From NCBI GenBank assembly GCA_003971905.1, contig RSEE01000023.1, forward strand, positions 372,001-436,000: a stretch of 64,000 bases of DNA, given 5' to 3'. Below, one piece after another: positions 1,557-61,770 of the stretch (position 1 is the stretch's first letter; every line of letters starts with the position of its first letter). The position numbers and the translations under genes are program-made. Below the pieces are notes generated by a model. The model was not told the DNA's origin. It saw only the letters and a list, made by a program, of their open reading frames with translations, and searched no databases. The stretch comes from Moniliella sp. 'wahieum'. Lineage: Eukaryota.

Positions 1557-2001
1557 CTAGTGGCGTGACGCGTGACGTCTGATGAAGCAAGTTGCATGTG
1601 ATGCACATGATGGAACCCGTCCATGTGCAGGACCATCGATCATCGACCCGTCCTCAGGACTGAGTGTACTCAGGGTACTAGCTGTACTCCAGCTGAGGCC
1701 CTGAGGCCTGAGGCTCAGCCGGAGCAGAGATCTCAGACTGAGAGCTACCAGCTGTTGCTCCGGCGTGGCAACCATGTGATGTTGTGATATACCGATGATA
1801 TGATGGGTGCGGTATATGTGACACTACGCCATGCGTCTTGCACTTGTGTGACAAAAGCGAATGTGGTTAGTGGGGCCTGGGGGGCACAGATAACATACGG
1901 CACACCCGCCGACGAGAGACGAGGCGGAGCACAAGGGGCAACAGGCATAGCATGTAACATGGTAACATGGGGCAAGAGCACTGTTACCATGTAAGGCCTA
2001 A
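1557..2001. repeat. Cluster of TNA-[4-bp palindrome]-TNA heptamer units
   Basis: TGA.CGCG.TGA 1566-1575; TGA.GGCC.TGA 1702-1711; CATG.TAA.CATG ~1951-1961; TAA.GGCC.TAA 1992-2001. Confidence 0.75.
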
Positions 2002-2569
2002 GGACTCTATACTATTGGTCTACTAACACATTCTATAGCAGCAGAGATCCTTCAGAGAAATAAATGAGAAGACATATCCGGGTTGGAGCCCAGAGGTTGG
2101 AAATATTGGACCAAGCTGCACGCGTTGAACATGTTGAATGAACTGAGGATCTGAGCGCCATATATCGATCAACCCGCCAAAAACATTGCCCAAAAACGCT
2201 CTGATCAGCAGCGCTCTCTGAGGATCGATGACCGACCTGAAGCCAATACAACCGGTGTGACTGGTGACTGGCGAACAGAGAGTGTCGTCAGCGCGCCAGG
2301 AGCAGCGGCCCCAGCACTCCCAGTGGTGTCGGATCGCTTACGACTATTAAAGTACGCGGTTTTATATATTAAGAGGGTTAGTGCTTAGTACGCGTTAATA
2401 CCCATCACCTTTCCAAGGCTGTTGCAGCCATAATGCATTGCATGTAACATGTACCAGGCGATTGCGGCGCTCGCATCAGAGCTCGCATCCTCCGCTGAAA
2501 ATCGAAGTGTTCATCGCGTTCAGCAAACCCGCAGCGAGTTCATGAAGATCAACAACACATCTCCATCAT

Positions 2570-4990
2570 CGCGTCTAACGCGTTAAAAAGATGTGTTCAA
2601 ACGTGGTTGGGTACGCGTTTAGAATACCCGACCCACGTTCAAGATTTCAAACGTTCCCTCCGATTTCTGTCCGAGCTCTGAGAACCCCGATTTCAGAGTC
2701 AAGCTTGAACGTTTTAAAAGTTTACTGTTTACGCGTTACGTTTACCGATTAACGTTTAACTTTTCCGTTTAACCCGTGTGGCGCGCGCCATATATGCATC
2801 TGCCGAGCAATATCCCGCAGTGGCGGGTGGCGCATGGGGAAGAGTGGCGGGGGAGATCGGGGAACGAGACAAAGAGTGGAAACACCTATTTGGTTCTGGG
2901 CGCATCAACGCATCACCGTCACAGGCGTCACTCACGTCACTGGCACGCCGAACATCAGCATCAAAAGTGTTTGACAACAAGTTGGCGTATCTGTAGCGCT
3001 GTGCTTGATATTAGGCTCAGTACACTCCATCTGAGATCTGATGGGTCTGATGGTGCTGACGCGCCTGACGCGCGCTGCGTCCCAGCTGACCCAACAGCCG
3101 ACGTCAGCGTCAGAGGCTCTTGTATTAACCTGGTCCTGCTGGCTTGCCCAGTTGCTCTCGCTCGTGCACCCTGGATGGGATGGGATCGGGGCGAGGCAAT
3201 TCAAAGGCTTTGCAATGGCTCCAAGCCGAGCAGGCCGGCGCTATATCCAGTTGCATTGTTATGCATGTTACGTTCACGTTCAATGTTCATGGTAATAATG
3301 ACGGTGACATTGTGACATAGGGCAGGACGTGTCACTTTCACTACATCACTGCACTGGCCACAACAGTGAAGCTAGTGACTAGTGAAGCTTGAAGCTTGAA
3401 GTAAGAATGGCGAACAATAACTTGTTCCTTGCCTGGTGGCGGTCCCAACAGCACGCGGGTTAGCCGGTCAAGGCCGGCCGGTCAAGCTTCAAGCTGGACA
3501 AGCTTCAAGCTTCAAGCTCTTCAAGCTGCAAGGCCCAAGGCACACCACCATACGAAAAGCAGAGGGTAAAACATGCAATACACAGTCTGTGAATATGAGC
3601 TTTTCCAACAAAAGCAGTAATTATCAGTTGCTCAGATTCAGCATTACCTATGACTCAGTTTCTCTCATATACGCTCTCGGTACACCCACACAACCATGCA
3701 GCAACAGTCCTTCGTCAGCAGGCCGGCTGAGCGCGCGCGCGCGCTGAACGACTGAGCCGCTGAGTGCTGGAGGCCTGAAGCAAGTTGGGGCATGAAGATG
3801 GCGGGGCAAGATGACCGGGGGATATGCAAGTGGCATTAAATATTGAACGCTGAAGCTTGCAGCTTGAAGCTCGAGACGTTGTTGAAGAACGACTGTCAAG
3901 CGCAGGCCTTTTATAGACCAGCTTCAGATTCAGTCAGACGTTCAGTTCTTCTCACACGTTACGCGTTACCGCGGCCTTACTGGGTTACACGTTACGCGTT
4001 ACGTACGACACCATAGGCATAATACGATGCCGCTTGCAATTTGGGATGGGATTGAATGGGGCGGGGAGGCAGTGTGCGGGCCCATTCGGAAGGGGCGACA
4101 ACAGGGGGCAAGTGTTGTCCCCCTGAGTATGTGGGCCGGTTAGGCACGGCTGGTGTGGTGGGAGGATGGTGGTCTGTGCGATGGGGGGCCGTGCGTGGGG
4201 GCCCCCATGACTCGGATCGCTGGTGGAGACAGAGGTGAAACTGACGCCGTGCGGCTGTGGGGGGCACATGATCCCGATGTGGCCTGCTGTGGCTTTGGCG
4301 TTGGAACGGAATGGGTGAGGGGTAGGCCGTAGGGCAGCGAAGGGACTGCCATAGGGACTTGCGAAGCTAATGATGATAGGAATAGTGAGTAAGTTGCAGG
4401 TGCCATGCACCATGTGACATGTGACATGTAGCACATGTGGCATGTGGTTGTGAGTACGTGGGTATGAGAGTACGAATACTGGGTACTGCGTCCAGTACTG
4501 AGCTACTCAGACTGACTTCTCAGAGATCTCGGATCTCGATCTCATTACTGAGTCTCAGTACCGTGTGAGTTGTGAGTACAGTTCGGTGTTCAGCGGTTCA
4601 GCGCGTTGAACACGTTGAACGTTTAGTACGTTGTTAATCGATAATCGATAATCGAATAATCGTTGACCGAACCGTTGCGTACGAGTACACTGGGTACGTT
4701 AGGCAGACTGGCTAGAGTGGGGGTGTGACATGTGACAACAGCGCCCAGTGCACTCGGTGGTCGTAGGGCTTGCGTGAGTGTGTGAGTGTGAGCGGCGCAT
4801 GTGCCGGTTGTTGGCATGGCCGCCGTTTCGGAGCTCCTTTACTCGATCACTAGTCACTAGGTCACTAGGAATACTGAGGTCTGAGGCTCAGACCACCGGT
4901 CACCGGTCAGCCGGTCAGGCCTGAGCCTCAGGGCCCAGGCCACAGTGCCTCAGTGCCTCAGTGAACGTTCAGGCGTGCAGGCCTGAGACC
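2570..4990. repeat. Long region with many TNA-palindrome heptamer clusters, upstream of the C2H2 TF
   Basis: TAA.CGCG.TTA 2576; TCA.AGCT.TGA.ACGT 2699-2712; TGA.GATC.TGA 3032; CTAG.TGA.CTAG.TGA.AGCT.TGA.AGCT.TGA 3372-3399; CATG.TGA.CATG.TGA.CATG 4411-4428; (TAA.TCGA)x3 4635-4655; TCA.CTAG.TCA.CTAG 4847-4860; CCGG.TCA.GGCC.TGA 4911-4924. Confidence 0.85.
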
Positions 4991-5181
4991 ATGGTAGCTA
5001 GGAAAGCCTCGTCGAAAACAAAGCCAAGCGAAACAGCGCCGAGTGGCGGTGTCCGCCGGGAAGATGACTAGCGCTGGTCCGTGGCCGCCCGGCAAATGCC
5101 TACGCCCTCCGGCATCGCCCATTCTCCCATCGCATCAACGTTCAACAACACACCTAGCTTGTGACGCTCGAACCCAGCTGC

Positions 5182-8641: not shown

Positions 8642-9375
8642 GCCGGTTAAATGTGGATCGTTGCCACCAGGCAGGCACCCAAGCCGAGGACCTCAGAAAC
8701 ACGTCGAAGCGGGAACGTGCGACTCGCAGTCAAATATCAGCCTGCGCGTCACGTGGCGCGTCAATATCAATAGGAGCCAGCCGGCTGGCCTCAGGGGTTC
8801 ACTCTTTCATTATTTCAACGGGGCCATCTGTGCGCTCAGCTGAGCCGCTGAGCGCTATTAAACACAGCTGACTGATGCAATTGGTTGGGAGCTGCGCGAC
8901 TCCCCGATATACCACCCACAGGGACCCCCACGCCGCTGAGCGGCGGCTGAGGCGCTGGCTTGCCTCAAGACGGCTCGTACAAGTCACCCGAGTGGAACGC
9001 GGCGCAGCAGGCGAAGCTGAGGGCGCTGCAGCGGTAGCTGCTTTCTCGGTGAGGGAGAGCATAACGGCGCCATTGACTGGCAGCGTATGTGGGAACACCA
9101 GACTGAAGTATGCTCTCAGACCGAGAAGTACTTGCTTGAAGCTTGACCTACCCTCAGAGAAACTACATAACGTGAGGTGTGAGGTGTGCCGTATGGATGG
9201 CGATGACGCGATGACGCCAAATCGTCGGGCGGCATCCCCGGACTATACCCAAACGTGTTTAATCCTCATGTTCTCGATGAGGGCAACGGATCTGCAGGAG
9301 AATCAAAAGGGCGAGATACGCTCAAAGGTGAAGGTAAAGGTGTACTACATTTGATGAGATTACCCTTAGGTATTC

Positions 9376-9471
9376 GGTCGATTAGCTCAGTTGGTCAGAG
9401 CGTGGTACTAATACGTCCAACTTGGAGTGTTGGTGATGCCAAGGTCATGAGTTCAAGCCTCATATTGACCA
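9376..9471 (+). tRNA. tRNA-Ile(AAT) with 22-nt intron (9414-9435)
   Basis: Acceptor GGTCGAT/ATTGACC+A; D-arm GCTC..GAGC; anticodon stem TGGTA/TGCCA with loop CT-AAT-A[intron]A; T-arm ATGAG-TTCAAGC-CTCAT. Confidence 0.95.
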
Positions 9472-9472
9472 C

Positions 9473-9478
9473 TTTTTT
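9473..9478 (+). terminator. RNA polymerase III terminator (T6)
   Basis: TTTTTT two bases after the tRNA discriminator. Confidence 0.85.
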
Positions 9479-9690
9479 ACATTGGGTACGCTTGATCTGA
9501 AGAAGGCGCCAGCCCTCCGAGTTTCGCTCCCGCTCAGTCATATGGCCATGGTGCATGTGTCTTGCGCATCGCCATATGCATAACCGGTAACCATCGTCTC
9601 ACAAGTGTTCGTCATCGATCATCCGCCATTAGGCCTTAGGCTACAAATAACTGCTCGCGCCTTTGCGTCCACCTGCACCTCAGTCTTTCA

Positions 9691-12600: not shown

Positions 12601-12713
12601 AGGGCGACGTGGAAAATGTGGACGTGTCGGAAGTGGTCTCAAGCCATGAGCAACTGAACCACGAGGGCCATCTAGCGGCGGTGTTGGCGCGGTGCAATGC
12701 GTTTGTAGGGTAG
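9691..12713 (+). CDS. DUF726 (TMCO4-like) alpha/beta-hydrolase-fold membrane protein with long acidic/Pro-rich N-terminal region; intron and indels
   Basis: YDARSR, GVLTGGLAAPLLAP, GGGLAGYRVERRLRG, AKTKAHKAGLVLAETL..QGHRPVVLIG, VENVDVSEVVSSH; probable short intron GTAAGC..CAG at ~9754-9808. Confidence 0.85.
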
Positions 12714-15755: not shown

Positions 15756-16457
15756 GCCAAGGCCTCTGTAAAAAGGGAAATGGCGAGATAATCGTATTGC
15801 CGATAATCGATAACCGGCCGGTAACCACCGATCATTGATAACAAGCATCGTCGATACTCAGTAACTCAGTACTCAATAGCTATATCTAGCCTCTTATAGC
15901 ATAGCATAGCAAAGCCAGTATATTTGACTGTGACATGTGTCGCACGAAATAAGAGAAAGAATGCCAAGACGATGTCATGCAAATGAGGCAGAGGGGCGGT
16001 GTGTACATAACCGGTGCCAATCACTTTGGGCTGGGCAAGTATAGTTCCTGGCAGGCGCAGGACCAGTCTCGAACACTGATTCGGGGAATTAATCGCACAC
16101 CGCCCCCGTGGCTGCGCGGCCTTAATGCATTGCGAGCCCGCTGGGCGCGAGCATCTCAGCACACTGGCCAGATGCAGTGGCAGGGGTTCACACTGTCACG
16201 CATGTCACATGTCACAGCATTCAGCCAAGACGTGTGGTTCATGTTGTTCCCGCAAGTGCGGGGTTGAGAATAGTGCGACAAGAATAGGCTCTTGGCGTGT
16301 CTGGGACCAGCATATGTCAACACCCTTGATAGGATATCCCGCTTCGGTGATCCGCGGAGAAGTGTTAACGCCAAGCCTGTGTCTCCCGGAATTCGGCACT
16401 CGTCGAGGATGTGGACCATCGCGTCGCCTCGACCGTGAGCATACGACAGGATATAAA
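15756..16457 (+). promoter_or_regulatory. ENA ATPase promoter: cluster of PacC/Rim101 GCCARG sites plus TATA box
   Basis: GCCAAG at 15756, 15963, 16224, 16370; reverse-strand sites at 16291 (CTTGGC) and 16047 (CCTGGC); TATAAA 16452-16457. Confidence 0.7.
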
Positions 16458-16541
16458 GGCCCTTGCTTCTCTCTGCAATTCTCACCTGCAATCCCCATCT
16501 CGCATGCAGCAACTTGTGCTCGTTAGCTCATTTTGCCCAGT

Positions 16542-20027: not shown

Positions 20028-20138
20028 TACTCTCGCCTGTCCAAATGCAATCCCCATCGGTTCCTATCTCGATTCCACTGTACTGGACGACGGAGGTGTC
20101 CTGTTCGCAGTGTGTAGTACATAGCAAATGTAATGGTT

Positions 20139-23399: not shown

Positions 23400-24500
23400 C
23401 ATGCATGGTGCATGATGCATGCAAGGAGACAGGTGACATGCATGACATGTGGCATGGACAGGCGGCAGATGTGGCAGATCCCCGACGGATGCATGTCAGC
23501 CCTACACTGGCGCCATGCGGGCTACGCGCTGTCGCCCAGCCACAACGCCCTCAGCCTTGGCCAACCTCCAAGTCACGGGTGGCCAAGCCCCCGCCCAACC
23601 AACGGCGACTCCTGCGACCCCTGCTACCCCACGCCTACTATCCCCCGTTTGGCCAGGGCGGCGCATGGCGCAGTGCACGCCACATTTGGCCACTTGCCTT
23701 GTGCCCGCAGCGATGGCTGCGTAGCAGGCCACCCCATCCATCCATCCATCGCTCGCTGCTACCCGATCCAACGTGGAACGTGCAACCAGTGGAACCAGTC
23801 CGCCTGATCTGCGTCTCCGTTGGGGACCATTGCGGAGCCCATTCGGCCACTTGACTAGCTTGACTTGCAGATTGGCGTGGTCGTTCACGGAGTGTTCACC
23901 TTGAACAGTCACTAGTCAGCACTGGTCAGCAATAAATCTGGCATGCCACATGGAGTGTTGGTGGACCCTTTGTCCATCCACGAAGCGTAAACGAGAGGCT
24001 TCCGAAGGAGGACCAAACCATGCTGGTGATGAGGCCGGTGAGGTCGATGAAACGATGGAATATGGATGCATGGCCGATGGCCAAAACAAGGCCTATCAAG
24101 AAGGGTCTCCGGTCTGCCCAGGAGTCGACTCCCAATCGCGCACTGGGTCCGACGCCCAATCGGCCCACCTACAGCGGGCTTGGCAGATCCAGCGGTCCCC
24201 GCTACAGTTCCGTGATCCTGTGATCTGCCCCACGTTCCACGCGCCGCGTGGGGTCGATGCATGATGCATGGTGCATGCATGATGCACTTTGCATCAGTAA
24301 CTAGTAACTCAGTATACAGCTCTGCCCCTACTGTGCCTGCAACTGCATGGGCCAGTCTCTTCAACAGCTTCAAGAGCCTCAAGTCAACAACGTGGCTGCT
24401 TCAAGCTCAAGCTTCAAGCTTCAAGACGTTCAACCTCCTGGCAGTACATCGCACAGGAACGTCGCCCACATCAGGGCCTCAGGCCTCACCCCCACTAGCT
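23400..24500. repeat. TNA-palindrome heptamer clusters
   Basis: TGCA.TGA.TGCA at ~23409 and 24258-24268; TAA.CTAG.TAA ~24298-24307; TCA.AGCT.TCA.AGCT.TCA ~24407-24423; TCA.GGCC.TCA ~24479-24488. Confidence 0.75.
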
Positions 24501-24922
24501 CCACTGCTTACATGCTAACGCATTACTCCCATTGCTCGCCACGTGTCCGCAACGACCAACAATATATCTACACAATCACAAAGATGGGGGGGGGCAACCA
24601 GAAGTGCGGCACAGACGAAGGGTACAAGTACACGGTACAACGGAAAAGACGACCAAGTCGGCAAAAGCTAGCGAAGTGGGGACCAGAAAAGCGGTGACGC
24701 GGTGACGCTCGAAGCAGGAGGCATGAGGCCTGACGAGGGGGGCGGGGGGAGGGCAACAGAAACAAGGTGCAGGCAACCTAAGGCAAAGGGGCAAACCCCG
24801 AAGCCAAGGGATGCGAAAGCATCGACGCAGACTTAGTGGGCAGCTGTACATACCAAAGCAAAACACAAACACACACAAAAAGGCCACGGGCCGGGGGAAA
24901 AGCATCGAGAAGCCACCTAGGA

Positions 24923-25966: not shown

Positions 25967-26554
25967 GGTGCAGGCAGGAGAGAGGCCAAGGAGGAGGCGA
26001 AGAGGGAGGTGGTAGCAAGGCAGCAAACAGGGGAGGGCGCAGGGAGCGGAGCGTGCTACGCGGGGATCTTATACCGCTGCCGCAGCAGCTGCAGCGCCCT
26101 CGATCGAGCTGGGGCGAGAGGGTGACACTGGGTTTGTGCCTGGCCTCGTTGGTCCGGGTGGGCCCTGGCGCACATGCCTCCTGCCTCTCTCCCAGTGGCC
26201 GAGCCAGCTCCGGGCAGCACAGCGGCACTGTAGGCGCGGCGGGGCGGAGCTGCAGGGGAAGCGCAGGGCTGCGCAGGCAGCAGGGCACTAGCACCAGCAG
26301 CCACCGCGGGTGTGCTCAGCCCTACTGCGGTGTGGTGCCCTTGAGCAGGTATTCCGAGTGGAGCACAGGGGAAGTTTGGGGGGCCACAGGCGCCGTGCGG
26401 GGGACAATCGCGCTGGACTATGGTTTGGGCTGGGCTGGACTGGGCTGGCCGGCATGCCGTGCGGTGCGGGGGCAGCGCCAACCTACCGGCGCCATGCCCC
26501 GGGCCTTCCCCGGCTCACGCGCCCCGTCTGTCGTCGGCGACTGAAGGCCACCGG

Positions 26555-28050
26555 CAGTACTCAGACTCGCTGCCGATGCAGGCACCAGTACTCCACCAGT
26601 ACTCCAAATACTCCACCACTACTCCCGTACTCAGTACTCAGTATGCACTAGCCACTAGTCACTAGCCACTCCTCCTCTGCACGCGCTAGTCACTAGCTCG
26701 CGCTCACTTGTCCATGCCACTAGTGACTCGCTGCGCTGAGGCTAATCTCGATCGCCGCCGTGCCAAAGCAGTCAATTCTAAAGCACACCATTCCCCAGAC
26801 CAGCTGTGACAAATGTGATGCCAGTGATAAGGTTGTGGTTCAAAGACAGCGGAGCACACGGTACCCGGGGGTCGGCGTCCTGAGTATGAGTACCGACGGT
26901 GCAGCGCAAACGTGCAACCGCACATCAGGCGGAGCGCCAGTGACTTTGTGATACGCGGAACGCAAAACGCGGAACGACGCGGAACCGACCGCACTAGCTC
27001 TTGTTGAACGTTGAAGCTTGAACATTGAACGTTGAACATGAATTGAACGTTGAACGTTGAACATTGAACATTGAATGTCAACGTGTTCAACGTTCGCGCG
27101 TCACGCGTCACGCGTCACGCGTCACGTTTTTCAAGTTGAAAGCTAAGCCTTGGCGCTAAACCTAACACGAAACGCAAACGTTAAATTGGTACACGTTAAA
27201 CGTACGTTAAACGTTAAACGTTAAAGACATCTTAAGATCTTAACCGGGTACGATTCAATCCCACTCTCGGTGGAGCCGGTGGAGTCGGTGGAGTATGGAA
27301 GCAGCTGTGTCACGCGGCGTGTCGTGTGGCGTGTAGCGACAGGCCGCCCTGGAGTATCCTTGTCTTCCGATCCCCGATTTCACCGAGTTGTCGATAATCG
27401 CGGAGGGCTGAACGATCGATGATTCGATCGATGAGCGCCATGTCAGTACTACTCAGTAAAGTCCCTCCCTCCCTCCCTCCCGCAGTGGCCAGAACTACAG
27501 TTCCACCCAGCCCAGCTTCCAGGCCAGTTCTCGGGGCCTCGGATCCAACGCACCATGGCCGCTGGTGATGCGCTGATGTACGCGTCCAAGCCGAATCTGG
27601 AGGGCCCAGCCCATATACCACTCCCTCCCTACCGAAATGCCCCACGCTTGCTCCCGTCTGCAAACCTATGGAGTTACGGAATGACAGGGATGGCGGCTCG
27701 CCCAATTGATATTGAGCCTTGAAGCTAGCTTGAAGCTTCAAGCTTCAAGCTTCAAGGCAATGTATGATTGGGCATACATAGTCTTGGGCAGTGCGGCCCA
27801 CGCGGACCGCGGAGAAACTGCATCACGAACAACACAGCGTTCACCGAGTGTGACATGTGACATGTGATGCTGATGCAATGGGCAACATGTGATTCATCCA
27901 TCGGCGTCTCTCGGTGCTACCTTCGGCCTTTCTTTGAGCATCCAATATCCAATGCCCAAGGCATCCGGCTCCTATACCCTACCTGAGGCTGGAGGCTGGA
28001 GGCCGGAGGCCTGACGAGTGACGAGTGGCGCGTGACGCGTGACGCAGACA
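26555..28050. repeat. Densest TNA-palindrome heptamer region, upstream of the bZIP gene
   Basis: GTAC.TCA.GTAC.TCA 26627-26640; ~10 TTGAAC(G/A)-type units 27004-27076; (CGCG.TCA)x4 27097-27124; (ACGT.TAA)x3 27204-27224; TAA.GATC.TTA 27233; AGCT.TGA.(AGCT.TCA)x3 27727-27754; (TGA.CATG)x2 ~27851. Confidence 0.9.
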
Positions 28051-31249: not shown

Positions 31250-32570
31250 GGTGGAAGCGGAGATGGTTGGAGGGTGGGGTGGGAGGTGGAGGGAGAACAG
31301 TACGAAACGATGGGGCTGGCGAGGGGGGATTTAATACGATTGATTGCCCAGCGGTGGGAAGCAACGGACGGAGATGCTGATGACAGAGCTCTCAGGCTGA
31401 GATCTGAGACGGTGGTGCGGGGGGGTGTTTGCACCGAGTGGCGGGGTGCTGGCTTGGTCGGCGCAAGCGGATTTGGGCGCTGGGATGGGCAGGGTGCCCG
31501 GCCGGGAGACAGTCAGCGTGTCTGGTGTCTGGGGTACTATGGCCTCGAGGGTATGGGAGAGTATGGGAGGGTACAGGGTGGTGCGTGGTGGTGTCCGGTG
31601 CTGCGGCCCGCTTGGCCCGGCCGGGATGGAGTGTTGATATTGAGGCAGAGCGTAGTGGCAGCGTCGGCCAGGCGCTCAGCGCTCGACTGAGCCGCTGAAC
31701 GTTCACACGTTGACCGTTACCGCGCGTCGACGTCGTCAACGTTCAACGTGGCCACAGCCGCCGCTTTCACTTGCGGGCGTCTTGCAAGCCCCGCATTCCC
31801 CGCACTGGCTCATTTGGTGCTGCGGAGGATGCCGGCTGGTGCGGACGCGCGGGGAGAGGATGGCAGTTGCCTGCCGCTGCACTAACCGACGCCCCCGGCG
31901 CAGCGCCCATAATATACGTAGCAGCATCATTGGGGTTTCTTCCCCCGCTAAAACCGCCAGCGTCCGGCGCAGACGAAGCTGCTGCGGAGTTGACGGAAAT
32001 GCCCATTCGGTGCACGCCCTGCCTAGCTGCCCGCTCTCCTAAGTGATGGGATCGACCCAAGGCAGCCGGGACGGCAGTCTGAACGCATCGATCCAAGGCG
32101 TATATAAAAGCCTCTGGACGGTAACCGATCGGCCCCCAGCAGATGCCGGCGAGTGACGTAATAGGCCGCCCACACCCGCAACCGGAAGGTGCCGAAGGGC
32201 CGAGGCTGGTTGCTGGTGAAATTGTGAAACGTTGGCTGAGGCGCACCAGATAGATCTTCGATTGGATATTGATATTGAGATCTGGGATGCTGGCATCCTG
32301 CTTGGCGCCTGCTCGTCCCGGCCGGGTGGCCCCGGAAACACAACGCGGGTGGGGCCGGCGGGGCACTGGAGGGCGCTGGGCCGACTGACGCTGCCCAGGG
32401 TGGATGCATTATGCCAGTGCTTGATATTCGCTCAATCGAGCGCATCTCCCCCGGCGCATCCCCCCATCTGTATAGTGACCACATGTGCATGCTCTCTAGA
32501 TCGCATCTGCTGCCCCTCGTACTCCCCTCGTCTCTAGCACCATTGCGCTTCCCCTCCTCTGTCCGTGTTC

Positions 32571-34841: not shown

Positions 34842-34908
34842 GAAACGAAACAGAACGAAATGAAACGAAACAGAACAGAACAGAACAGAACGGAACGGAA
34901 CGAAACGA
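34842..34908. repeat. Degenerate GAAAC/GAACA/GAAC microsatellite downstream of the kinase
   Basis: gaaacgaaacagaacgaaatgaaacgaaacagaacagaacagaacagaacggaacggaacgaaacga. Confidence 0.9.
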
Positions 34909-35179: not shown

Positions 35180-37119
35180 TCAAGTGATGGTCAGGACAAT
35201 CGAGTGGGTATGGTTCCTGGCCAGCGTCGTGCCACAGGCATCGATGCTGGCAAACCACTTGTCACGAAGAATGTCGTCGACAGAGCAGCGCTGCTGTGGG
35301 TCGGGGCACAGCATCCGCTTCAGTAGCGGACGGCATTCCCGCGGGCTCAGATGGCTCAGCGGGCCAGGGGAAGAGGAGGCATGGTAGGTGTGAACAAATT
35401 CCTTAAAGGTGGGGTCCGACATCTTGGCCACGCGCCACGGCAGTTCTTGGAACTGCATGCAGTACAGCACAATTGCCGCCGCCCACATATCCACCAGACG
35501 GGCATCGTACTCTTTGTGCTCAAACTGTTCCGGCGCAATGTACGGCTCGGAGCCACAGAGACCCTTGGAGTAGTGCGTCGACGTTTCCCAGCACATGCGG
35601 AACACGTCCGACACACCAAAGTCGGTGATCTTGACCCGGCCCTGCGCGTCGAGAAGGAGGTTTTCGGGCTTAATGTCACGGTGGGCGACACCCATCGAGT
35701 GGAGATAGACAATGCCATGGATCGTCTGTTTAAAGTAGCACTCCACTTCCAAGGGGGACATGCCCCCGCGCTTGATGGCTGCGTACAGGTCACCTCCGGC
35801 GCAAAACTCCATCACCTCGCACCAATGCTTGTTTTCGTCCTGCACCAGGTCCACCGTCTCGACCACATTGATGTGGTGCAGGGTGGAGGAGATGCAAAAC
35901 TCCGAGGTGAGTTTCTTGACATAGTCCTTCTCCGTCTCGTTTTTGCGCCGCTTTCGGAACTCCTTGACCGCATACAACTTCTCCGTCGAGCGGTCCCATT
36001 TGTGCGCCAGACGAACCACCGCCGTCGCACCCTTGCCAATCGCCGCCTTCTCGCACACCCCATACTTTTTCAAAAGCGACACTGCGTCCCCAGGCGCCGA
36101 AGCACCGCCTTTCTTCGAACCACCCGAAGCCGACGAGCCACGACGCGAAAGCTTGGGACGATCAACTTGTCCCGCAGCGTAGACGAGGCCGACGACTTGT
36201 TATCGGTCTCCTTGTCCTTATCTTTGCCCGACTTGCCCGTCGCGATGGACAAGGGCGCACGGACACCAGCACTGCGCGCCTTGTCGCGTTCGCGCGCGGC
36301 GGCGGCCGCGGCGGCGGGCGCCTCGAGGTGAGCCAAGGCGAGGCAGTGAGCTTGTCGGCGCCCGCGCTGGCGGGGGGCGCAGGGCGGCGACCACTGTTGG
36401 AGCGCGAGGGGGCGGCACTGTGGGTTTGTTGCTGCGAGGCAAGCGACATGGCTTGGACCGAGCGCGTGATTTCCTCATGCGCTTGGGACGACTTGTCCAC
36501 CGACGCTCTCCCGCCGCCCATCATCCGCTTCAGCATCCCGGGCTTGCGCTCCGACGAGGCCGACTTGCCTGACGGGGTGCGCGCGACCGAGGCCGAGGAC
36601 GCGTTGGTGGAAACGGGAGAAGGAGGGGGAGGTTGCTTGGCGCGAGGAGGCGGGGCCGACGCAGGCGCGGGGCCGAGCCGGGCGGGGGGCTGGGGAAGAA
36701 GGCGCTGGTAGAGCTGGGCGGGGTGGAGGAGAGCGACGTGGGGCGGCTGCGTCGTCGGCATGCGCGTGCTGGCTTGCCTGCCGCGCAGATGGGCAGGGTT
36801 GACGGAGCGGAGGGGCGTCGGGCGCAGGGCGGCGAGCTGGGCAGCGGTCAGGTGGGCCGGCATGGGGCCGTGCGGGCTGGCCTCGCGACGGAGCGCGAGG
36901 GGATCGGCGCCGGCGGGGGCGGCGTGGGTGGGCACGGGGCAGGGTCGGAGCTTTGCATGCCGGCGAGGCGGTGGCGGGGGAGGGAGCCGAGGCCGTGGCC
37001 GGGGGTGGGGCTGGGGGGGCGCGAGGAGAGGGAGCCTTCGGTCTCGCTGTCGCTCAGCAGGGCGGCGGCCTTCGAGTCGCGCTCCCAGCCGGGGGGGCGG
37101 GCAGGCGGGAGGGGGGCAT
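35180..37119 (-). CDS. Ser/Thr protein kinase, fungal HAL/NPR family (Sat4/Hrk1-like) with low-complexity N-terminus
   Basis: [63 protein letters not shown]; probable ATG 37119. Confidence 0.92.
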
Positions 37120-37686
37120 GGCGGGCGGGCGGGGGGGGGGCAGAGAGGCGGAGAGGGGAGGGAAGAGCGGAGGGAAGGGACGAGCGGGGAGAGACAGCAA
37201 GGACACAGGCAGCAGCCGCACGAAGAGCAGCAGGGCGCTAGAGGATGCGCACAGCGCCCATCGCCTTCCGACGGCGGCGAGAAAGGCAGTGGGGGTGAGG
37301 TGGGTGGGTGGGTGGTGGCTGCGGGGGGAGGCGGCTGGGCTGCCGTGCGTCTGGGGCCCACCAGCGGCACCACCGCTGAGCCACCGCAGCCACCGGTGAT
37401 CCAACCAGCACCCGCGCCGCAGCCAGCCGCCCACACTGGCCCCCTGCCGCGCTCCGCTGGCTTCGGCCTCCCACCGACGGCTGCCTCATCCTCACCCATG
37501 GGTGCATCACGCGCCGTCTTGAAACTTGCATCTGGCGTCGGCGCATCGGCTGAGTACTGGCATCCATCCATCCATCGACCAGCTGCCGCCTGCCGCTTAC
37601 AGGCGCGTGACAAACGACACACCCACCCACACTCGCCGCCTGCCGCCTGCCCCTGCCCCCAGCACCACCCAGGGTCACGTGCTCTC

Positions 37687-37722
37687 ATCCATCCCATCCC
37701 ATCCCATCCCATCCCATCCCAT
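37687..37722. repeat. (ATCCC)n microsatellite
   Basis: atccatcccatcccatcccatcccatcccatcccat. Confidence 0.9.
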
Positions 37723-37862
37723 CTCGTGTCCCAACCACAGGCTACCCAATTCGCATCCTCAGCAGCACCCTGCCCCCCATTCTGTCTCGCAATGCATGCA
37801 TCTCGCCTGGACGGCTGCGTCTTCGTCGGCCCAGCCAGCCAGCCGTTGCATCCTCTCCCGGC

Positions 37863-38621: not shown

Positions 38622-40886
38622 GGTTGCTGCGGCAGAGAGACCTCGGAGGTGGTGACAGAAGCCGGCCGCAACGCACGCTGGACCACATTGGCAAGCGGGC
38701 CCGGCCGGGCGCGGGGGAGGACAACCCAGCGACAGACTGGCCCCGTGCCCCAATTCACCCATCACCCTGACTTGCCTTGGGCACCAGCCCAGTCAGCCGG
38801 GGCGCAATGCCCACTTGGATCCTAGGGTTGGAGGCAAGGCGCGGCAGAAGGACAGTGAGGGGAGCAGGCGCAATTATTGGCTGGTGCATCTGTTGTTCAG
38901 TGCAGCCGACCGAGCCTAGTAGGGTTGGTCCTCGCCTCGTCTCGGCTGGCTGGGTTCGACTGGGGCTTGAACAAAGGCGAAAGCACCCCCCCCCCAGCCC
39001 AGCCCCCAGCTGGCGCCCGCTCGTCACCATCACCCAAGCCAGGCTGGCACGTCAATTCCGCGTCACGCGTCACGTCGGGTATGCCTTGTGCCAAATCTGT
39101 CTTCTGTCCCATAGTGCGTGCCGGGTCGCTGTGAGTAAGACCACGGACGCTGAGTCCTGTGTGAGTCCTACAGAGTACGCAATTGAGCTCAGCCAGTGAG
39201 CCTCAGTACTGTGCATTGAGCACCGAGCGTACCATGCGCGGTGGTGGTCTCATGGTTGCGCGCGCCAAGGCGGGGCGGTGATGCCGTTGATGCGTTGAGG
39301 GAAGAAGGGGAGGGTGAGGAAGAACACAAGAACCCGAGGTAGCCCCCGCGATGCCAGTGATGGTGGTGCTGATGACGGCAAGCGGTACGCGTTGAGCGGA
39401 CGGCCGCAGTGGCCCTCGTGCTAGACCTACGGAGAGCGGGGTGCTGTTCAAAGCGGTCGAGGCGCTTGGTTGACAAGCCGCTGGCTCCTCGCGCTTCTTG
39501 CAGCTTGATGGCGTACAGCAATGTACTTAAAGTACTCGTGCAATGCAACGGGTCAAGGGCCAGCGGCACAACCCACTGGGACGTGGAGCTTGAAGCTGGA
39601 ACGGTTGATGGCCGTGGACCGGGCCGTAGACCGCTGGTGTTTGTACGATGAAAAGTTAATGAAGCTTGAAGCTGCACTTGAAGTACGCGTGAAGCTCAAA
39701 CAGACAACACAAGGACAGTTCCCGGCGACCGCACCGCACCATTGCACCATGCCCGGCGCTGGGTGCACCCTGCCTGCCGCACAGCAGACTGCAGCCGGTA
39801 CTGGTGGTGCCAAGACGGTCGGCCGTCCGCCTTCTCATCTGGACGAAAGATACAGAGCGAATTGCCCCAAGCGGAGGCGCTGCATGTTGCACGCCCGATG
39901 CTGCGTCATGTCGGTAGCCAAACCGAGGCGCTCGGGTCTGTATGGAAACAAACGAGCACCACGAGCACCAAGACGAAGAGGTTGCGCATGGGGAGCGCGT
40001 CACCGATCACTCGCTGACCGCCCATCTGACTATCTCACGTCGTGGCACATCTCTCATCCCAGGCAGGCCGCGGCGCGTTCCGCGTCCCGAGCGACGGATC
40101 CCAGGCGACCCCACGCCCATGTGTGCGCACCCGAAACGTACATGACGATGCGCAGCAAGCTCGTGACTTCGGGACCGCCGCCCCCCTGCCACACCCGTTC
40201 ACCTTGACCGCCCCAAACAGCACCGCGCACGTACGATGGACGGCGGGTGAACGTGGAACGTGGAACTCAACGTGCCTCAACGTTAAGATTCGAGGTCTCC
40301 AAACCCCTTGCCTCCGTCCCGCCCCCGCCCAGCCCCATGGAACGCGCGTCACCCGCCGTTCCTACGCGGCGTCCGCGCTGGTGAATGCGACATGGGCCGC
40401 GCTCCGCGCTCCGAGGCAAGGTGCAGCTGTTCCAGCCCAGACGCTGGCACGATGAAAAATAGGGCCCGGTACGTGGAGCAAGGTGCATGATGCGGGGACG
40501 CGGGGACGCGGGATGGGCTACAAAGCTGGTTGTTGGAGACAGACGTGGGTGTGTACATAGTCCTGTTCTGCCAAGGACGTCTGCAATACAAGTAAAGTAC
40601 AGACTGGTATGTGGAGGAAGGAGGGGACAGGGGGGGGGGGGAGGGGGGCAGCAACGAGAGGGGCACAAGCGGGAACAAAAGGGGCAAACATGAACAAAGG
40701 CGACAGAAAGGGGGAGGGGGCCCAGCAGGGGATTACGAACGCAAAGCAACAGTGCACAGTGGAGCGGGGCAAAAGAAGGCAAGGCAGGCGGGCGGTCGTG
40801 CACGCGCGCAAGAACGCGAGAGGGGGAGGCGGAATCAAAGCAAACCGAGAGCAAACGTGGTATCAAAGCAAGTGGCCGCCAGACGA

Positions 40887-42973
40887 CTAGCTTCGGGAGG
40901 AGAACAGAGCGTCAAAGCCATACCCCAGCGGCAAAAAGTCGTCTGGGGAAGAAGCCGATTTGTCGTTTGGCCTGAGCTGGTCCGAGGGAGGCGAAAGCGG
41001 CTGGTTGGGGATCGATCCGCTGCTCGGTCCGCTACTCGCGCCCGTTTTGCCGCCGAGGGCATGTCGAGCGAGGGGAAGGAGGCGGCCCAACCCTCGTCGT
41101 TCGAAGGAGGGAACACATCGTTCACACCCAGCGAACGCAACAGCGCATCCGCCTGGCTCTCACTCGGCATCTCCGATGGCGTCGACGCCGCTGCCGAAGT
41201 AAGGGATAAAGGATCCGACGGCGCCGACGCAGACACGGACGAGTCCCGCGCCGAAGGAGCGGACGAAGCTGGACTGTCGCCTGTCGCAGCAGGAGGCGAG
41301 ACGTGCGTTTGCGTTTGGGTCCAAGACGGCTCGGATACCGCGGGCGGTAACAAGGCTCCCAACGACAACTCGTCCAACCCCAACCCCAACCCTTGGCTCG
41401 GGGTCATACTGCCCGAGCCGGGGTACGGGGAGGAAATGCCATCGGCATGCATCTGGGCCAGAGCAAGGGGGTTGAACCGCATGTCTGCTAGGTGGGGCGG
41501 AAGCGGGTACGACCCCACTCCGGCCGGGGTAGAAAGACCACTGGCGTTCTGCGAGCCTGGCATAGGTCGGGGCGCAACGGGTTGTTCGGGCTGGAGCGCC
41601 GTCATTCTCATTGGTCCCAATGAGGCGGGGAGCGGCGGGCGAGGGTGGGCGATCCGGTTCGGCTCGAGGGGCGAGAAGGATGGGTGGAGCGGTCGCCTCC
41701 GACTTGGTGGCCAGAAGGGTTGTGAGCTCGGCTGCCTTCTTTGCGATGGCCGAGCGCACTGGACGAACGCGATGGATGCGCCGAGTGATGGGCGTGGCCA
41801 ACGTGCAGCGAGGGCTGCAACACACCTTGTTGTTTGTGAGCAGTGGACAGTCGGCCAGAACGATAGAGCTCTTGTGCTTCTTCGCTCAAGGTCCACCACG
41901 AGCCTTTGCCCGCGGCGGAAGCTGGCCTGGGGACCTTGACAAACAAGTTGCTCTTGATCGACAAGGTGGACTTGATGCGGTTCTTGACGCGGGCCTAGAA
42001 AGCAGACGGAAGAAGGGGCAGGGTTGCAGGTTAGTACATGGTCACACGAATATTCAAGAAAACGGCACACAAGACGTGAAGCGCGTGCTGAACCTACCTC
42101 CCAGTCCTTGCCATTGGCCCACTCGTGGATCTCGGGGAACTTTTGGCACATGCCATGGAACAGATCCTGGATTACCAGGCGGTGTTGTGGCGATTCAGCA
42201 ATGGTGGCGCAGATCATGTCGGACCAGATCAATCGTTTGCCGTTGACGTAGAAGGGGGAATTCCGGGGGCCGTGGCCATGGGCGGCATGGGACCCGGCTG
42301 CGCCCTGGGCTGGATTGGGACCATGGCCGTTTGCCTGAGCCGCGCCGGGTGGCAGGGCGGAGGGATTTATGGGTGAAAAGGCAAAGGAGGGATCAAACGA
42401 GCCCAGGCCGATGCCGGGGGTGGAGTAGCCCGTGTGGGCCAGATTGCGCGCGCCGGGGCCACCTGGGCTGCTGGCCCCGGAGCCTGGGGCAGAGATGCCA
42501 CTGGGGGTGGCACTGGACGAGGGCGGGAACTGGCGGGCAGCAAAGGGCATGCCGCCGGCGGCAGCAAAGCGGGCGAGCTGGTCGTTGAGGTAGGCCAGGG
42601 ACGCATTGGTGGTGGCGGTGGCCGCGAGGTTGGGTGCGGGGTGGAGGAGGTGGGCGGGGGGTGCCTGGGGCGGGGCGGGGGCGCCCGGCGGGAGGCGGGC
42701 TGGTTGGGGCCAGGCATGGGGACAAAGAAGTTGGGGTGGCCGGGGAAGGGCGGGAGGCCGGGGGCGGCGGCGGGGCGGGGGCCGAGGTGGAGGCGGCGGA
42801 GGCGGTGGGCGGCGGCGCAAAGGGGAGGAAGGCGTTGGGCGGCGGCGGCATGGCGGGCATGGCCGACGCGGCGGGCGGGGGCGCGGGGGCGGGCGCGGGG
42901 GCGGCGCGGGGGCGGGTGCAGCGGCGGTGAGCCAGGGCGGGGGCATGGGCGCTAGCGGCTGCGGGGGGTTCAT
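40887..42973 (-). CDS. Forkhead/winged-helix transcription factor (divergent domain), intron 41995-42097
   Basis: LIWSDMICATIAESPQHRLVIQDLFHGMCQKFPE..DWE|ARVKNRIKSTLSIKSNLFVKVPRPASAAGKGSWWTL; intron GTAGGT..TACTAAC..TAG. Confidence 0.85.
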
Positions 42974-43689
42974 AGCGGGGCAGATCGACAGGCGGGCGGA
43001 ACGGGCGGAAGACGGCGGCGGCGGTGTGGTGGGAGAGACGAGGTGTGGATGGCTGCTGCTTGGCCGACCAGCGGGGCGGAGGGAGAGATGAGGTCGCTGG
43101 GGACCGATGACGCGCTGAGCGCTGATGGATGGCTGATGCACGGCACAGCACATCGCCCATCGCTGATCGCTGCCGATGACGCCGCAGCCCGCCTTCCAAG
43201 TGTGCTGACCTCAGCGCAGCGCTCTGGTGGGCGCACGCGTCACGCGCAGCACAGCACTGTGCGCGGGCCAGCACCGAACCACCTAAATCCCGCCACTTGG
43301 CTGCAGCTGCACCCCGCCTGCTGCGGGCCCTGGCCGCCTCCCGCAGCCGCGTGCAGCCGCATGCCAGCCAGGGGGTCAGCAGCAGACAGCCGCAGACAGC
43401 TCAGCCGCTGGGGCGCTTGGACGTATGTGGGCGTTGCCCACGGCTGGTTCCGCCTCCCGTACTTCGGAACGCAGACTGAGTACGCTCCGACGTTTAGGCC
43501 TGACCCTCAGGCGAACGTCCAGTGCCCGTCCAGCCATCGCTCAGCCACTTGTCCCAGCGCCTCGTCTCCTCTGCTTTTGCCGCCCACGCACCTTCGACCA
43601 GCGCATTCGTTCGCTAGGTATTCAGACGCTTGGCGCTTACCAGCCAAGCGCCTCCCGTGAGGCCTGAGGATTACCCGGAATGAGATCAT

Positions 43690-44080
43690 TCGAGATGCGT
43701 CAGATGCGTCAGACATCAGTGCATCACATCCAAGGCTCTCAGATCTCTCGGATCTCTCAGATCTCAGGCGGAGGAGGGGCAGCAAGGGGCAGCTGCCTGG
43801 ACGATGGCGTACCGGTTATTAGCGGTTACCGTTACCTGTAGTGCAGTCAGGTCAATGATCGATGATCGTCGATCGATGTTGGATGCTGTTCGATGAACGT
43901 CTGAATGTGAGCTCTCCGAGATCTGAGCCGCTCTGTTCCAGCCTGCCCGCTTTGCCAGTAACTAGTTACTAGTTACTAGTTACGCTTACGAGTTACTTGT
44001 TACTAGTTACCAGCTGCGCCAGTCACTCTAGTCACTCTAGTCACTAGCAGCAGCCACTAGGGGGACTAATCTTACTAGGG
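43690..44080. repeat. TNA-palindrome heptamer and 9-mer cluster in the forkhead/SET divergent intergenic region
   Basis: TAA.CTAG.TTA.CTAG.TTA.CTAG.TTA 43959-43982; TGA.TCGA.TGA ~43856; TCA.GATC.TCA ~43757; (AGTCACTCT)x2 44021-44038. Confidence 0.85.
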
Positions 44081-51319: not shown

Positions 51320-51345
51320 CGAAGAGAAGGAGGGATTGCCGGTTG

Positions 51346-51389
51346 GGCCTAACCGCGGCCTAACCGCGGCCTAACCGCGGCCTAACCGC
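51346..51389. repeat. Perfect 11-bp minisatellite (GGCCTAACCGC)x4
   Basis: Four exact copies read directly. Confidence 0.95.
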
Positions 51390-52661
51390 GCGGTGGCAAG
51401 ACCGTATAACGCACTGCAGAGGGTATATGTATACCTGGTCTAGCACAACCGTCGTCGTGCGACCGGTTTTGTATATAGGACAGCTGATACACAACGCTGC
51501 TGAGAAACGAGACGTGAAAAAGAGACTATGAAGGGGAGGGGTGCTATATATCACAGAGACAGTATACCCCAGTACCCTCATAGGTGTGATGCATGTGAGC
51601 GAGCATTGTTGCGAGCAGGGGATGATCGATGATCTCCAGCCACAGCGCGCAATAACGTCGGCAAAAGTGGGGGCACTGACGGGATTGAATATCGACAGAC
51701 TACGCCAACGTTATAACATTTGAGGAAGGGTCTCCGGGCCATGCTGCCCCGGGCAAAAAAGGGAGGGTAGAGAATTGCAACTGCACTGTTGACTCGGGGG
51801 GCTAGCGCTTAGCGCTTACCGTTACCGGCGGATACCAGTTTCGGCTATTAGGCGTTATGGATATTAGGTGCATCGGGCCTGGCGGGACAGAGGTGTGGCT
51901 GAGAGCTGCGATTGAGAGCCGAGAGCTGGAGAGCTGAAATCGCTCCCACAGGCCACAAGGGCAGAAGGATGGGCTGAGACGTGCGCGTCGTAGCTCGCGA
52001 ATTAGAACCACAACTCTATATCGCAACCACTTTTGCTGGCGGGGATGAAAGCGGGGGAGCGGGCATATTAAGGTACATCGAATGTTGGCTGGAAACATAG
52101 GTACGTACGTGCGCAGTGGAGCATGGTGCCTGGGGCGTGGTGCGGGGAGAGGGAGATCGGCGGGGCAAGGGGCGCAGTGGGCGGAGCTGCTGGGCGCGGG
52201 AGGAAGGGGCAGTGTGTGGTATGGAGGGAGGGGCCGCGACTGTGTGGCAGTGGTAGGGGCAGTGGCAGTGGCAGTGGCGGTGGCGGTGGCGGTGAAGGCG
52301 ACCCAGCGGGAGGGGTGCGAATAGAGAGGGTGTGTTACTAGGGGGTCCTGTCATGCGGCTGCGTCGGCCTTGGGCGGCGCCGTGCCAGGGAGTGGAGTGA
52401 TGCGAGGCCTGGCCGGTGATCTGCCCTGGGATGATCTCGATGATCGATGATCGCTGCTCGATGTCGATTAGGCTCAGACGTGCGCCGACGGCCCGCAGGC
52501 GCCCCCTCGTGCCCAGGCACTGCAGGGCGCCACCCAGACAGCAACGTGGTGCAGCAGCATGCAGCAGCCCAACCCCCCTCCGCCTCCCCCACCCCCCCTC
52601 CGTCTGCCTCTCCTCCCCCGCCTGCTCCCTCCCCACCACCACCACCACCACCACCCTCGCC

Positions 52662-57423: not shown

Positions 57424-57520
57424 TCTGATGGAGAGTGGGTCGGTGCCAACGATGAAGGTTAAACGTTGGAGAGACATCCACTTGGCAGAAATTGCACTTG
57501 ACAATCCACCAGGGGGGTAA

Positions 57521-60500: not shown

Positions 60501-61311
60501 GCAATTGGTTTTGCTTCGGCAGAATCAGGGCGAGACGCGGAAGCTTCAAATGGAGGTCGAAGCCTCTGTTTTCCCATTTCTTGAGCCGCTGGCAAAGATC
60601 CCGAAGGCAACGACGTAGCCAAAGAGGTGCGACTGGTATCGAGAGCGGAAGCGGGTCTAAACATAGCACGGAAGCGGTCGCGCTTGCGCGTGCCCATCTC
60701 AGCTGCACGGCGACGGATCGTTTCGGCTGGGACGATCCACTCGGCTTGCAGCGGGCAAGGTCGAACCTGCCACCAGCGGGGTCCGCCCAGCAGAGGGTCC
60801 AAGCCATGGGATCCCCCGGAATGCCCACAGTAAAATGGTCGGTGATCACGGCTGCGGCCTTGCGGATGGCTTGGGAAGGAACCTGGGTGGTCTGCGCACG
60901 TACATGGGCCGGCACGGGAAGGGGCATGCTGGCAAAGCGCTGGATAGACTCGACCGTGTCAAGGCACATGGCCCTAACGAATATGCGGGCGACAGAGAGG
61001 GAGAGGTCGTATAAGACCTCCTCATTGGCCAAGTCCGATCCTCCATGGGCATGAGAACGGGATTTGCGAGGGCGGGTATTGCGTCGAGAGAGGGGCGAGT
61101 GGAAAAGACGCTTGGTGGGACCGAGAGAGCGTGAGGCCGAAGAGGAGCTACTAGGGCGAGACGGATCAGAGGAGCGGGCAACAGGGTGTGAGTCGGGGGC
61201 GCTGCGACGTCTTCGGGAGTGGTGTGCGAGGCGACGGGCATAATGGGAGAGAAGGGAGCGGACGACGGCTGGGTAGATGCGTGCGCTGAGCGCAACAGCA
61301 TTGAGAGCCAT
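57521..61311 (-). CDS. Large alpha/beta hydrolase, GDXG/HSL lipase-esterase family; indels
   Basis: DPLLGGPRWWQVR, LYCHGGAY, YRLAPQYPFPCGLHDMLAAY, ILSGDSAGGG, LGGLPPLYILAG..EALRDE, LQVWDDGVHV. Confidence 0.9.
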
Positions 61312-61499
61312 CTCCAAGCGGACGTCGTGTGGATGGTGGTATGGATGCTACGGGCACAAGTGTGGCTAACGACCGAGGCAAGGAGGGGCTGTGCGATAAT
61401 GGATCATCGACAATGCCGACGCCCACTGCTGGGGGGTCTTCGCAACACAAAAATGACGTTCCTGGTCGGCGCCAACTTCTTGAGATGGCCATCACGGGC

Positions 61500-61770
61500 A
61501 TGTTGAACGTTGAAGTTGAACGTTCAGTTGAACGTTCCGAACCGGCGCGCGCATTGGGGCAACGCGCACTGGGGCAAGCCCTGGCAAGCCAGGAAAGCCA
61601 CCAGGCCAAGCCGCTGCCCAGGGTTCGACATTCGGCGACACCATCCCCGTATCTGGTGTCTTTGATCCATAGGTCTGTGCGTACGAGGTTCATATTTCAA
61701 CGTTCAACGTTGCACGTTGCAGTACGTTGCAGATTATATGTTGAAAGTTGAACGTTCAACGTCGATGTCG
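61500..61770. repeat. TNA-ACGT heptamer clusters upstream of the hydrolase
   Basis: TGA.ACGT.TGA ~61504; TGA.ACGT.TCA ~61517; TCA.ACGT.TCA.ACGT ~61697; TGA.ACGT.TCA.ACGT ~61749. Confidence 0.8.

Follow-up and report, generated by a model that had tools for sequence, protein, structure and literature searches.

The stretch analysed here, 64 kb of one fungal nuclear genome (Moniliella sp. 'wahieum', contig RSEE01000023.1; hereafter the window, to which all window counts refer), has a base composition of 58-59% G+C. Its genes with Pfam matches, which are interrupted by introns, encode a HAL4-type kinase, isocitrate lyase, a P-type ATPase and the ribosomal proteins L2 and S6e, as well as the DASH Dad2 subunit, RhoGAP, GH16, bZIP and zinc-finger proteins. 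The HAL4-type kinase shares 82% identity with a Ceraceosorus guamensis protein, followed by Tilletia and Malassezia among the named matches listed, and judged from these listed kinase matches the organism appears to stand close to the Exobasidiomycetes. The non-coding DNA of the window holds short tandem arrays of a 7-bp unit, composed of a triplet T-N-A (the linker, N being any base) and a self-complementary 4-mer (the core), and these arrays are the subject of this report.

The pattern is genuine and lies far above chance. With perfect arrays defined by a period of 7 and at least 2.0 copies, the window contains 63, versus 3.60 ± 1.83 (maximum 11) in 100 dinucleotide-preserving shuffles, a type of shuffle that also served as null model for the other counts. 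In 34 of the 63, rotation of the unit gives T-N-A followed by a 4-bp palindrome, against a mean of 0.04 and at most 1 such array in the shuffles, and 36 consist of a 6-bp palindrome plus one base, namely 34 of the A....T type and 2 with CACGTG. Tandem Repeats Finder likewise returned many period-7 arrays, of up to 10.9 copies. The 10-mer T-N-A/palindrome/T-N-A, henceforth called a site, occurs 86 times versus 6.39 ± 2.71 in shuffles, whereas the same flanks around a non-palindromic core show no excess (99 versus 105.9 ± 11.2). Furthermore, when identical 3-mers flank a 4-bp palindrome they are mostly TGA (28), TCA (23), TTA (10) or TAA (8), with at most 6 for each other triplet. A preliminary description of the window had proposed both this preference for palindromic cores and the prevalence of these four linkers, and both are borne out; the 14 cores it listed were all recovered, at or a few bases from where it had placed them. 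Thus 14 of the 16 possible core types are in use, AATT and TTAA not being found as T-N-A-flanked cores in the window. Beyond the arrays themselves, A....T hexamer palindromes are enriched (293 versus 167 expected), as are odd palindromes centred on T-N-A (292 versus 178 with arms of 3, 117 versus 47 with arms of 4), and no enrichment was seen in the window for the palindrome classes T....A, C....G, G....C, A-N-T, C-N-G and G-N-C.

The rule demands T-N-A flanks and a palindromic core jointly, either one alone carrying a generic 2.5-3-fold excess. This is evident in a non-coding set of 22.9 kb, delimited by hand using the map of open reading frames (ORFs) and Pfam matches, where the word T-N-A plus palindrome occurs 428 times versus 136 (z 24.5) and none of the 15 other flank classes exceeds a z of 4.2; in the remainder of the window the word stands at 164 versus 190. 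Among 10-mers of the non-coding set, T-N-A flanks with the same N surround a palindromic core 66 times versus 1.0 in shuffles and a non-palindromic core 36 times versus 14.4. Any other identical triplet does so 54 times versus 17.8 and 833 times versus 276, respectively, and A-N-T, C-N-G and G-N-C flanks enclose a palindromic core 8 times versus 5.3. A more general rule, in which any 3-mer would be followed by a palindrome and the same 3-mer, was rejected, as palindromes are not preferred outside T-N-A (about 3-fold either way). The 63 period-7 arrays comprise two populations: 36 whose unit is a complete odd palindrome (10% under the null), and 27 that resemble random heptamers, with two versus one complementary pair in a ratio of 17:10 that matches the null. 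Unlike plain short tandem repeats, the arrays therefore obey a structural rule on the unit sequence, with a T-N-A centre in 34 of the 63, and their separation from ordinary microsatellites, already suggested on first inspection, holds.

With regard to its anatomy, the unit is self-complementary at 6 of 7 positions (A-x-y-y'-x'-T plus a free base) and equals a 7-bp odd palindrome centred on T-N-A, so that it has the two dyads originally described, one in the middle of the core and the other on the odd base. This odd palindrome is complete at one linker in 72 of the 86 sites. The two adjacent linker bases of a site are the same in 69 cases, complementary in 10, which is about the expectation for independent linkers, and otherwise different in 7. 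Since neighbouring linkers are the same and not complementary, the arrays extend head to tail and palindromy belongs to the unit. The linker base takes all four forms, with G or C in 44 of the 59 runs; no polarity of the arrays relative to a purine linker base was found, and both orientations are intermixed in single regions, even upstream of one gene.

The 59 runs are short, the lengths including 10 (n=3), 12 (n=12), 13 (n=11) and 14 (n=12), with a maximum of 30. At their 118 ends, the number of periodic bases past the last T-N-A is 0 (33), 1 (16), 2 (35), 3 (10), 4 (17), 5 (4) or 6 (3), against chance expectations that begin with 88, 22, 5.5 and 1.4; arrays thus terminate behind the linker, in the middle of the core or behind the whole core. 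Beyond the first mismatching base, agreement with the unit drops to about 0.31 (for ends at the core centre, 0.26 at the following base). These ends are therefore real and not decayed copies, and the idea that they are point-mutated remnants of longer arrays was discarded because the periodicity is not resumed. Nor does dyad symmetry continue past the array ends: among 9 symmetric runs, 6 have no and 3 have one complementary flanking pair. In the longest array (27003-27075), 5 of 11 units are CpG-transition products of ACGT (ACAT, ATGT), which hints at a high rate of CpG transition; one further unit, AGCT, represents a double change that preserves the palindrome.

The T-N-A plus palindrome word is not confined to a period of seven. 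Besides the 34 arrays with this period, it recurs in 6 of the 17 period-8 arrays, 3 of the 9 with period 9, 2 of the 4 with period 11 and 1 of the 2 with period 12, so that the word is the favoured element and seven its bare length. Direct 5-mer repeats in the 22.9 kb of non-coding DNA are raised 2-6-fold at the other lags between 1 and 24 and 15-fold at lag 7 (411 versus 27). A general 'cryptic simplicity' of non-coding segments (for instance 1249-5157 and 26542-29541) exceeds the palindromic class, with secondary peaks at 8, 9, 11 and 14. Adjacent units with different palindromic cores were met twice versus about 0.5 expected, too few to back a generative rule.

The sites are concentrated in particular parts of the window, with 70 of the 86 lying within the 28% that is free of ORFs of at least 150 aa. 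The preliminary description had placed arrays in most long intergenic regions, which holds in a loose sense: one or more sites occur in all 5 ORF-free segments of at least 1 kb and in 11 of the 20 that reach 300 bp. Within 700 bp of 15 ORF-defined genes, 36 sites are located upstream (9.9 kb, 3.6 per kb) and 12 downstream (8.8 kb, 1.4 per kb), gene ends being approximate and two of the 'downstream' windows probably lying upstream of unannotated neighbours. The highest upstream density precedes the zinc-finger (9 sites), bZIP (12), forkhead (4) and isocitrate lyase (3) genes, and 6 of the 15 genes, including those for the Aurora-like and HAL4-type kinases, Dad2 and S6e, have no site in the upstream 700 bp. 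The forkhead label is provisional, as this 791-aa ORF (40835-43210, minus strand) is forkhead-like by eye and has no Pfam match at E ≤ 0.001. Self-BLAST of the window for dispersed repeats gave 6 matches, the longest of 46 bp, so that the arrays are not carried by a mobile element, and this candidate was dismissed. Likewise, a supply of stop codons (TGA/TAA in all frames) was rejected, given the mixed orientation upstream of the same gene.

Outside this genome, a single metagenome scan provided 71 basidiomycete loci (385 kb) with kinases 49-83% identical to that of the window; these comparators are distant and share no synteny beyond the kinase. Arrays were counted in the 24 loci that reach 4 kb (289 kb in total), where 1 of 27 period-7 arrays fits the rule. 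Furthermore, T-N-A and A-N-T words are balanced over the pooled 71 loci (2134 versus 2100) and unequal in the window (595 versus 270). At the depth of these distant comparators, the pattern thus appears to be lineage-restricted. The literature, searched exclusive of supplements, yielded no account of fungal heptamer arrays with a palindromic unit, and the search gave no confirmation of the intergenic heptamer repeats that the preliminary description had mentioned for Ustilago. Among the matches listed, those closest to the fungus of the window do belong to the Ustilaginomycotina.

We favour, with a probability of roughly 0.38, the reading that the arrays stem from a lineage-restricted mutational process in which small tandem duplications would arise or persist more readily if their unit is able to self-pair about a T-N-A centre; the arrays would then be the trace of local mutation and not protein-binding sites. 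The local 'writing' of DNA, as invoked at the outset, is still the most economical frame. Because the core may be any palindrome, it is 'readable' only through base pairing, and ordinary slippage accounts for the generic repeats but not for the palindrome rule. In such a process, an extra copy arising in a slipped-strand, flap or gap intermediate would probably pair with itself and so escape removal. A pair of units would provide a 5-bp stem closed by a 3-nt T-N-A loop, and seven would be the smallest unit with room for both such a loop and a 2+2 stem. Variants carrying 1-5 additional bases grow scarcer with increasing spacer length. Arrays would accumulate where insertions are tolerated and DNA is accessible, that is, on the promoter side of intergenic regions. 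Folds predicted for the array strands have the 5-bp stem and T-N-A triloop, with energies of -2.5 to -11.4 kcal/mol (z +0.4 to -2.7). These energies refer to single strands; as cruciforms, the arms would be 5 bp between N:N mismatches in runs of mostly 12-14 bp, and in tracts of 12-30 bp a single strand exposed during replication or repair is a far more plausible setting for such pairing than a cruciform. The CpG-decayed units of the longest array we take as decay without purifying selection. Palindromic loops reportedly evade mismatch repair in yeast, as is said to have been found by Nag, White and Petes in 1989 and by Nag and Petes in 1991.

Several observations weigh against this account of a self-pairing duplication. 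Short arrays are predicted to fold weakly (-2.5 to -3.9 kcal/mol, z +0.4 to -1.7), and the 2-bp stem in a single 7-nt loop seems unlikely to block repair. G-N-C and C-N-G stems would be energetically equal or better, yet they are represented by 2 and 0 arrays without any word excess, so that pairing energy does not account for the exclusive use of T-N-A. Moreover, 26 of the 59 runs, being 10-13 long, fall short of two full units and cannot result from a simple 7-bp duplication, and slippage predicts no phases, whereas 33, 35 and 17 of the 118 ends coincide with the linker end, the core centre and the core end, respectively. Isolated T-N-A plus palindrome words are not depleted (100 versus 96) and the clusters come in addition (169 versus 112), so the arrays are not simply outgrowths of chance words. 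Finally, the upstream bias is also compatible with function. Exclusive T-N-A, runs of less than two units, fixed end phases and extra clusters together point to an added sequence-specific enzymatic step, for which a nick, an enzyme that recognises the loop or a centre that opens easily could be envisaged. It is conceivable, though doubtful, that the arrays reflect a DNA-writing activity of an undescribed kind, adding self-complementary 7-nt units to accessible promoter DNA by a T-N-A-specific step coupled to self-pairing of the new strand, or a promoter code read through self-pairing instead of base-specific contacts; in the former case, the T-N-A step may be a nick or loop recognition by a nuclease, a polymerase or a transposase-derived enzyme.

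A functional origin would instead regard the arrays as selected promoter elements that act in cis, for instance as symmetric sites which work on either strand, have a structural or architectural role in nucleosome-free promoter DNA and are tuned through their copy number. The concentration of sites in ORF-free DNA and upstream of genes, their highest density before regulators and isocitrate lyase, the invariant T and A together with sharp, phase-specific ends that resemble recognition, and clusters that are additional loci rather than expanded chance words would all suit such a role, which we nevertheless consider unlikely: a protein is unable to read 'any palindrome' in B-DNA, a homodimer needs the complementary linkers seen in just 10 of 86 sites, and many arrays, at 12-14 bp, are probably too short for cruciform extrusion. 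CpG-decayed units are tolerated, several housekeeping promoters have no arrays, and the pattern was not found in the 385 kb sampled from other, distant basidiomycetes. The use of 14 of 16 cores and the mixed orientations within a region also argue against sequence-specific binding in general; a single transcription-factor site is, as first noted, a poor fit to 14 different cores, and homodimeric transcription-factor sites were rejected on account of the cores and of linkers that are direct rather than inverted.

Quite unlikely in our judgement is cut-and-repair initiated by a lineage-specific nuclease or transposase-derived enzyme, whose staggered cuts centred on T-N-A would be repaired with a gain of 7 nt each; in its ordinary form, this idea equates the arrays with the footprints left when a cut-and-paste transposon whose target duplication is a 3-bp T-N-A excises. 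Duplications of T-N-A/TWA are made by IS5 and PIF/Harbinger elements, and a Tc1-type footprint consists of the duplication, the terminal bases, their complement and the duplication again. The strict T-N-A, the equal linker base on both sides in 69 of 86 sites (like a target-site duplication), the three discrete end phases and the lineage restriction among the sampled basidiomycetes speak for such cutting. However, a footprint should stop at the outer T-N-A, which only 33 of 118 ends do (both ends in 3 of 59 runs), whereas 54 of 59 runs extend at least 2 periodic bases on one side; 14 different cores would require many element families, and 64 kb contain no transposon-like dispersed repeat. Hairpin (P-nucleotide) chemistry, in turn, predicts complementary linkers or linker-derived cores, neither of which was found. 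In budding yeast, topoisomerase II and Spo11 breaks cluster in promoter-bearing intergenic DNA (PMC6813358). As a cutter, topoisomerase II was rejected, since yeast Top2 with etoposide favours C over A next to the cut (PMC6813358). The alternate fold-back (hairpin-primed) synthesis about two dyad axes put forward in the preliminary description does imply the 7-bp period from dyads 3.5 bp apart, and a few arrays do open with a flipped unit that creates a perfect 14-bp palindrome (27731, 43959); it predicts alternating complementary linkers, though, against 69 same, 10 complementary and 7 other, and symmetry ends with the arrays, which renders it very improbable as the way in which arrays extend. 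Least credible of all is a sequencing or assembly artefact, because the arrays are confined to non-coding DNA; they also carry ordinary point-mutation variants, and we know of no platform error that generates such a rule.

The individual arrays and their longer-period variants are compiled in Table 1.

Table 1. T-N-A plus palindrome arrays and related variants, in window coordinates
Array	Coordinates	Strand	Remarks
(TGA+CGCG) x2.1	1563..1577	.	perfect
(TGA+GGCC) x2.1	1700..1714	.	
(TGA+CTAG) x2.0	3372..3385	.	final TGA common to next array
(TGA+AGCT) x2.7	3383..3401	.	
(TCA+AGCT) 6.7 copies	3482..3532	.	imperfect, 77% matches; perfect parts 3482-3495, 3499-3518
(TTA+CGCG) 6.0 copies	3957..4003	.	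imperfect, 68%; perfect part 3990-4003
(TGA+CATG) 4.9 copies	4411..4446	.	83%; perfect part 4411-4429
(TAA+TCGA) x3.0	4635..4655	.	
(TGA+CATG) x2.0	4724..4737	.	both ends are core centres
(TCA+CTAG) x2.0	4847..4860	.	runs on as 8-bp variant 4853-4869
(TCA+CCGG) x2.3	4894..4918	.	then 8-bp variant CCGG+TCA+G
(TCA+CATG) x2.3	16201..16216	.	
(TGA+TGCA) x2.1	24256..24270	.	
(TAA+CTAG) x2.0	24296..24309	.	
(TCA+AGCT) x2.7	24407..24425	.	
(TCA+GGCC) x2.0	24475..24488	.	
(TCA+GTAC) x2.4	26627..26643	.	
(TGA+ACGT) 10.9 copies	27003..27075	.	longest array, 82%; perfect part 27043-27062
(TCA+CGCG) x4.3	27097..27126	.	longest perfect array
(TAA+ACGT) 7.4 copies	27176..27225	.	70%; perfect part 27204-27225
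(TCA+AGCT) x3.4	27733..27756	.	one flipped TGA unit just before
(TGA+CATG) x2.7	27849..27867	.	
(TGA+CGCG) 4.9 copies	28012..28045	.	88%; perfect part 28029-28045
(TCA+ACGT) x2.0	31736..31749	.	
(TCA+CGCG) x2.3	39059..39074	.	
(TGA+AGCT) x2.0	39660..39673	.	
(TGA+GCGC) x2.0	43112..43125	.	
(TGA+TCGA) x2.0	43855..43868	.	
(TTA+CTAG) 7.9 copies	43957..44010	.	79%; unit 1 flipped (TAA); perfect part 43961-43983
(TGA+TCGA) x2.0	51621..51634	.	
(TTA+GCGC) x2.3	51803..51818	.	
(TGA+TCGA) x2.4	52437..52453	.	
(TCA+ACGT) x2.3	61696..61711	.	
TGA+GGCC+C x2	1693..1708	.	8-bp variant
TAA+CATG+G x2.1	1954..1970	.	8-bp variant
TGA+CGCG+A x2.2	9200..9217	.	8-bp variant
TGA+CGCG+G x2.2	24691..24708	.	8-bp variant
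TGA+CGCG+CC x2	3056..3073	.	9-bp variant
with CTAG+TCA, x2.8	44021..44045	.	9-bp variant
with GGCC+TAA, x4.1	51346..51390	.	11-bp variant, perfect
with TGA+ACGT+TCA, x2	61514..61537	.	12-bp variant

Other repeats accompany those of the table. Clusters of CTGAG/CTCAG, which are 5-bp odd palindromes of the form C-T-N-A-G, occur in both orientations at 1693-1720, 4497-4560 and 4870-4965; they are partly 8-bp repeats (GCCTCAGT x5) and look like the same theme with the core G..C. At 26583-26625, an 11-bp repeat (CACCAGTACTC, about 4 copies) contains the A....T palindrome AGTACT and is directly followed by the (TCA+GTAC) and CACTAG(C/T) arrays. Pentamer arrays of non-palindromic type are found at 34838-34908 (GAAAC, about 13 imperfect copies) and 37689-37723 (CCATC, seven perfect copies). 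Two G-rich low-complexity tracts of the plus strand (37086-37187 and 42748-42944) lie within long minus-strand ORFs, where they encode the proline-rich N-terminal parts of the kinase and the forkhead-like protein, and stand outside the intergenic pattern. The sole tRNA gene in the window (9376-9472, plus strand; Rfam 52.6 bits) is about 96 nt long and thus probably intron-bearing, ARAGORN giving no anticodon; the divergent intergenic region around it also has heptad sites (9137 and 9581-9638).

Tandem repeats are normally defined by their sequence, whereas here dozens of differing arrays follow a single structural rule; the effect is about 60-fold in size, the internal controls are clean, and the arrays occur in one lineage only among those sampled. 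If the process is mutational, this genome would offer a natural experiment on the birth of short repeats, and it may reveal a step of repair or replication that reads the self-pairing of DNA, whose gain or loss ought to be traceable in the genome. Functional arrays would represent a promoter element recognised via shape or pairing instead of sequence.

Several known systems are reminiscent of these arrays in part. The 'palindromic microsatellites' of Fusarium mitochondria are (A)n(T)n palindromes and as such differ from the T-N-A heptamer arrays. Template-switch (quasi-palindrome) mutations copy the complementary strand and thereby create short perfect inverted repeats, whereas the copies in the window are direct and leave the odd base uncomplemented. 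The variable tandem repeats of yeast promoters and the microhomology-mediated tandem duplications of fission yeast are likewise short and unstable and cluster in promoter and intergenic DNA, but are not known to follow a palindrome rule or to prefer a period of 7. Among bacteria, the cyanobacterial STRR are heptamer repeats. The Beggiatoaceae have intergenic direct repeats of the heptamer TAACTGA (PMC4679880). Like the arrays of the window, both bacterial families form short heptamer runs that are exclusively intergenic and present at many loci per genome; theirs, however, is one fixed, non-palindromic unit per family in bacterial hosts, whereas the units of the window have a structural rule and not a sequence in common, the linker taking four bases and the core 14 forms. 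Excision footprints of Tc1/mariner, IS5 and PIF/Harbinger elements share with the arrays the order of duplication, short palindromic filler and duplication, with the triplet base the same; unlike them, the arrays continue their periodicity past the outer triplets, use 14 fillers and have no element copies in the window. In hairpin-forming repeats, such as triplet-repeat slip-outs and palindromic loops in yeast, self-pairing and not a particular sequence decides which units expand. The arrays differ from these in their 7-bp unit, whose 4-bp palindromic core is free and whose T-N-A is obligatory, in their mostly 1.7-4 copies and stems of 2-5 bp, and in ends at fixed phases, and resemble them in having tandem copies and a looped-out strand able to pair with itself.

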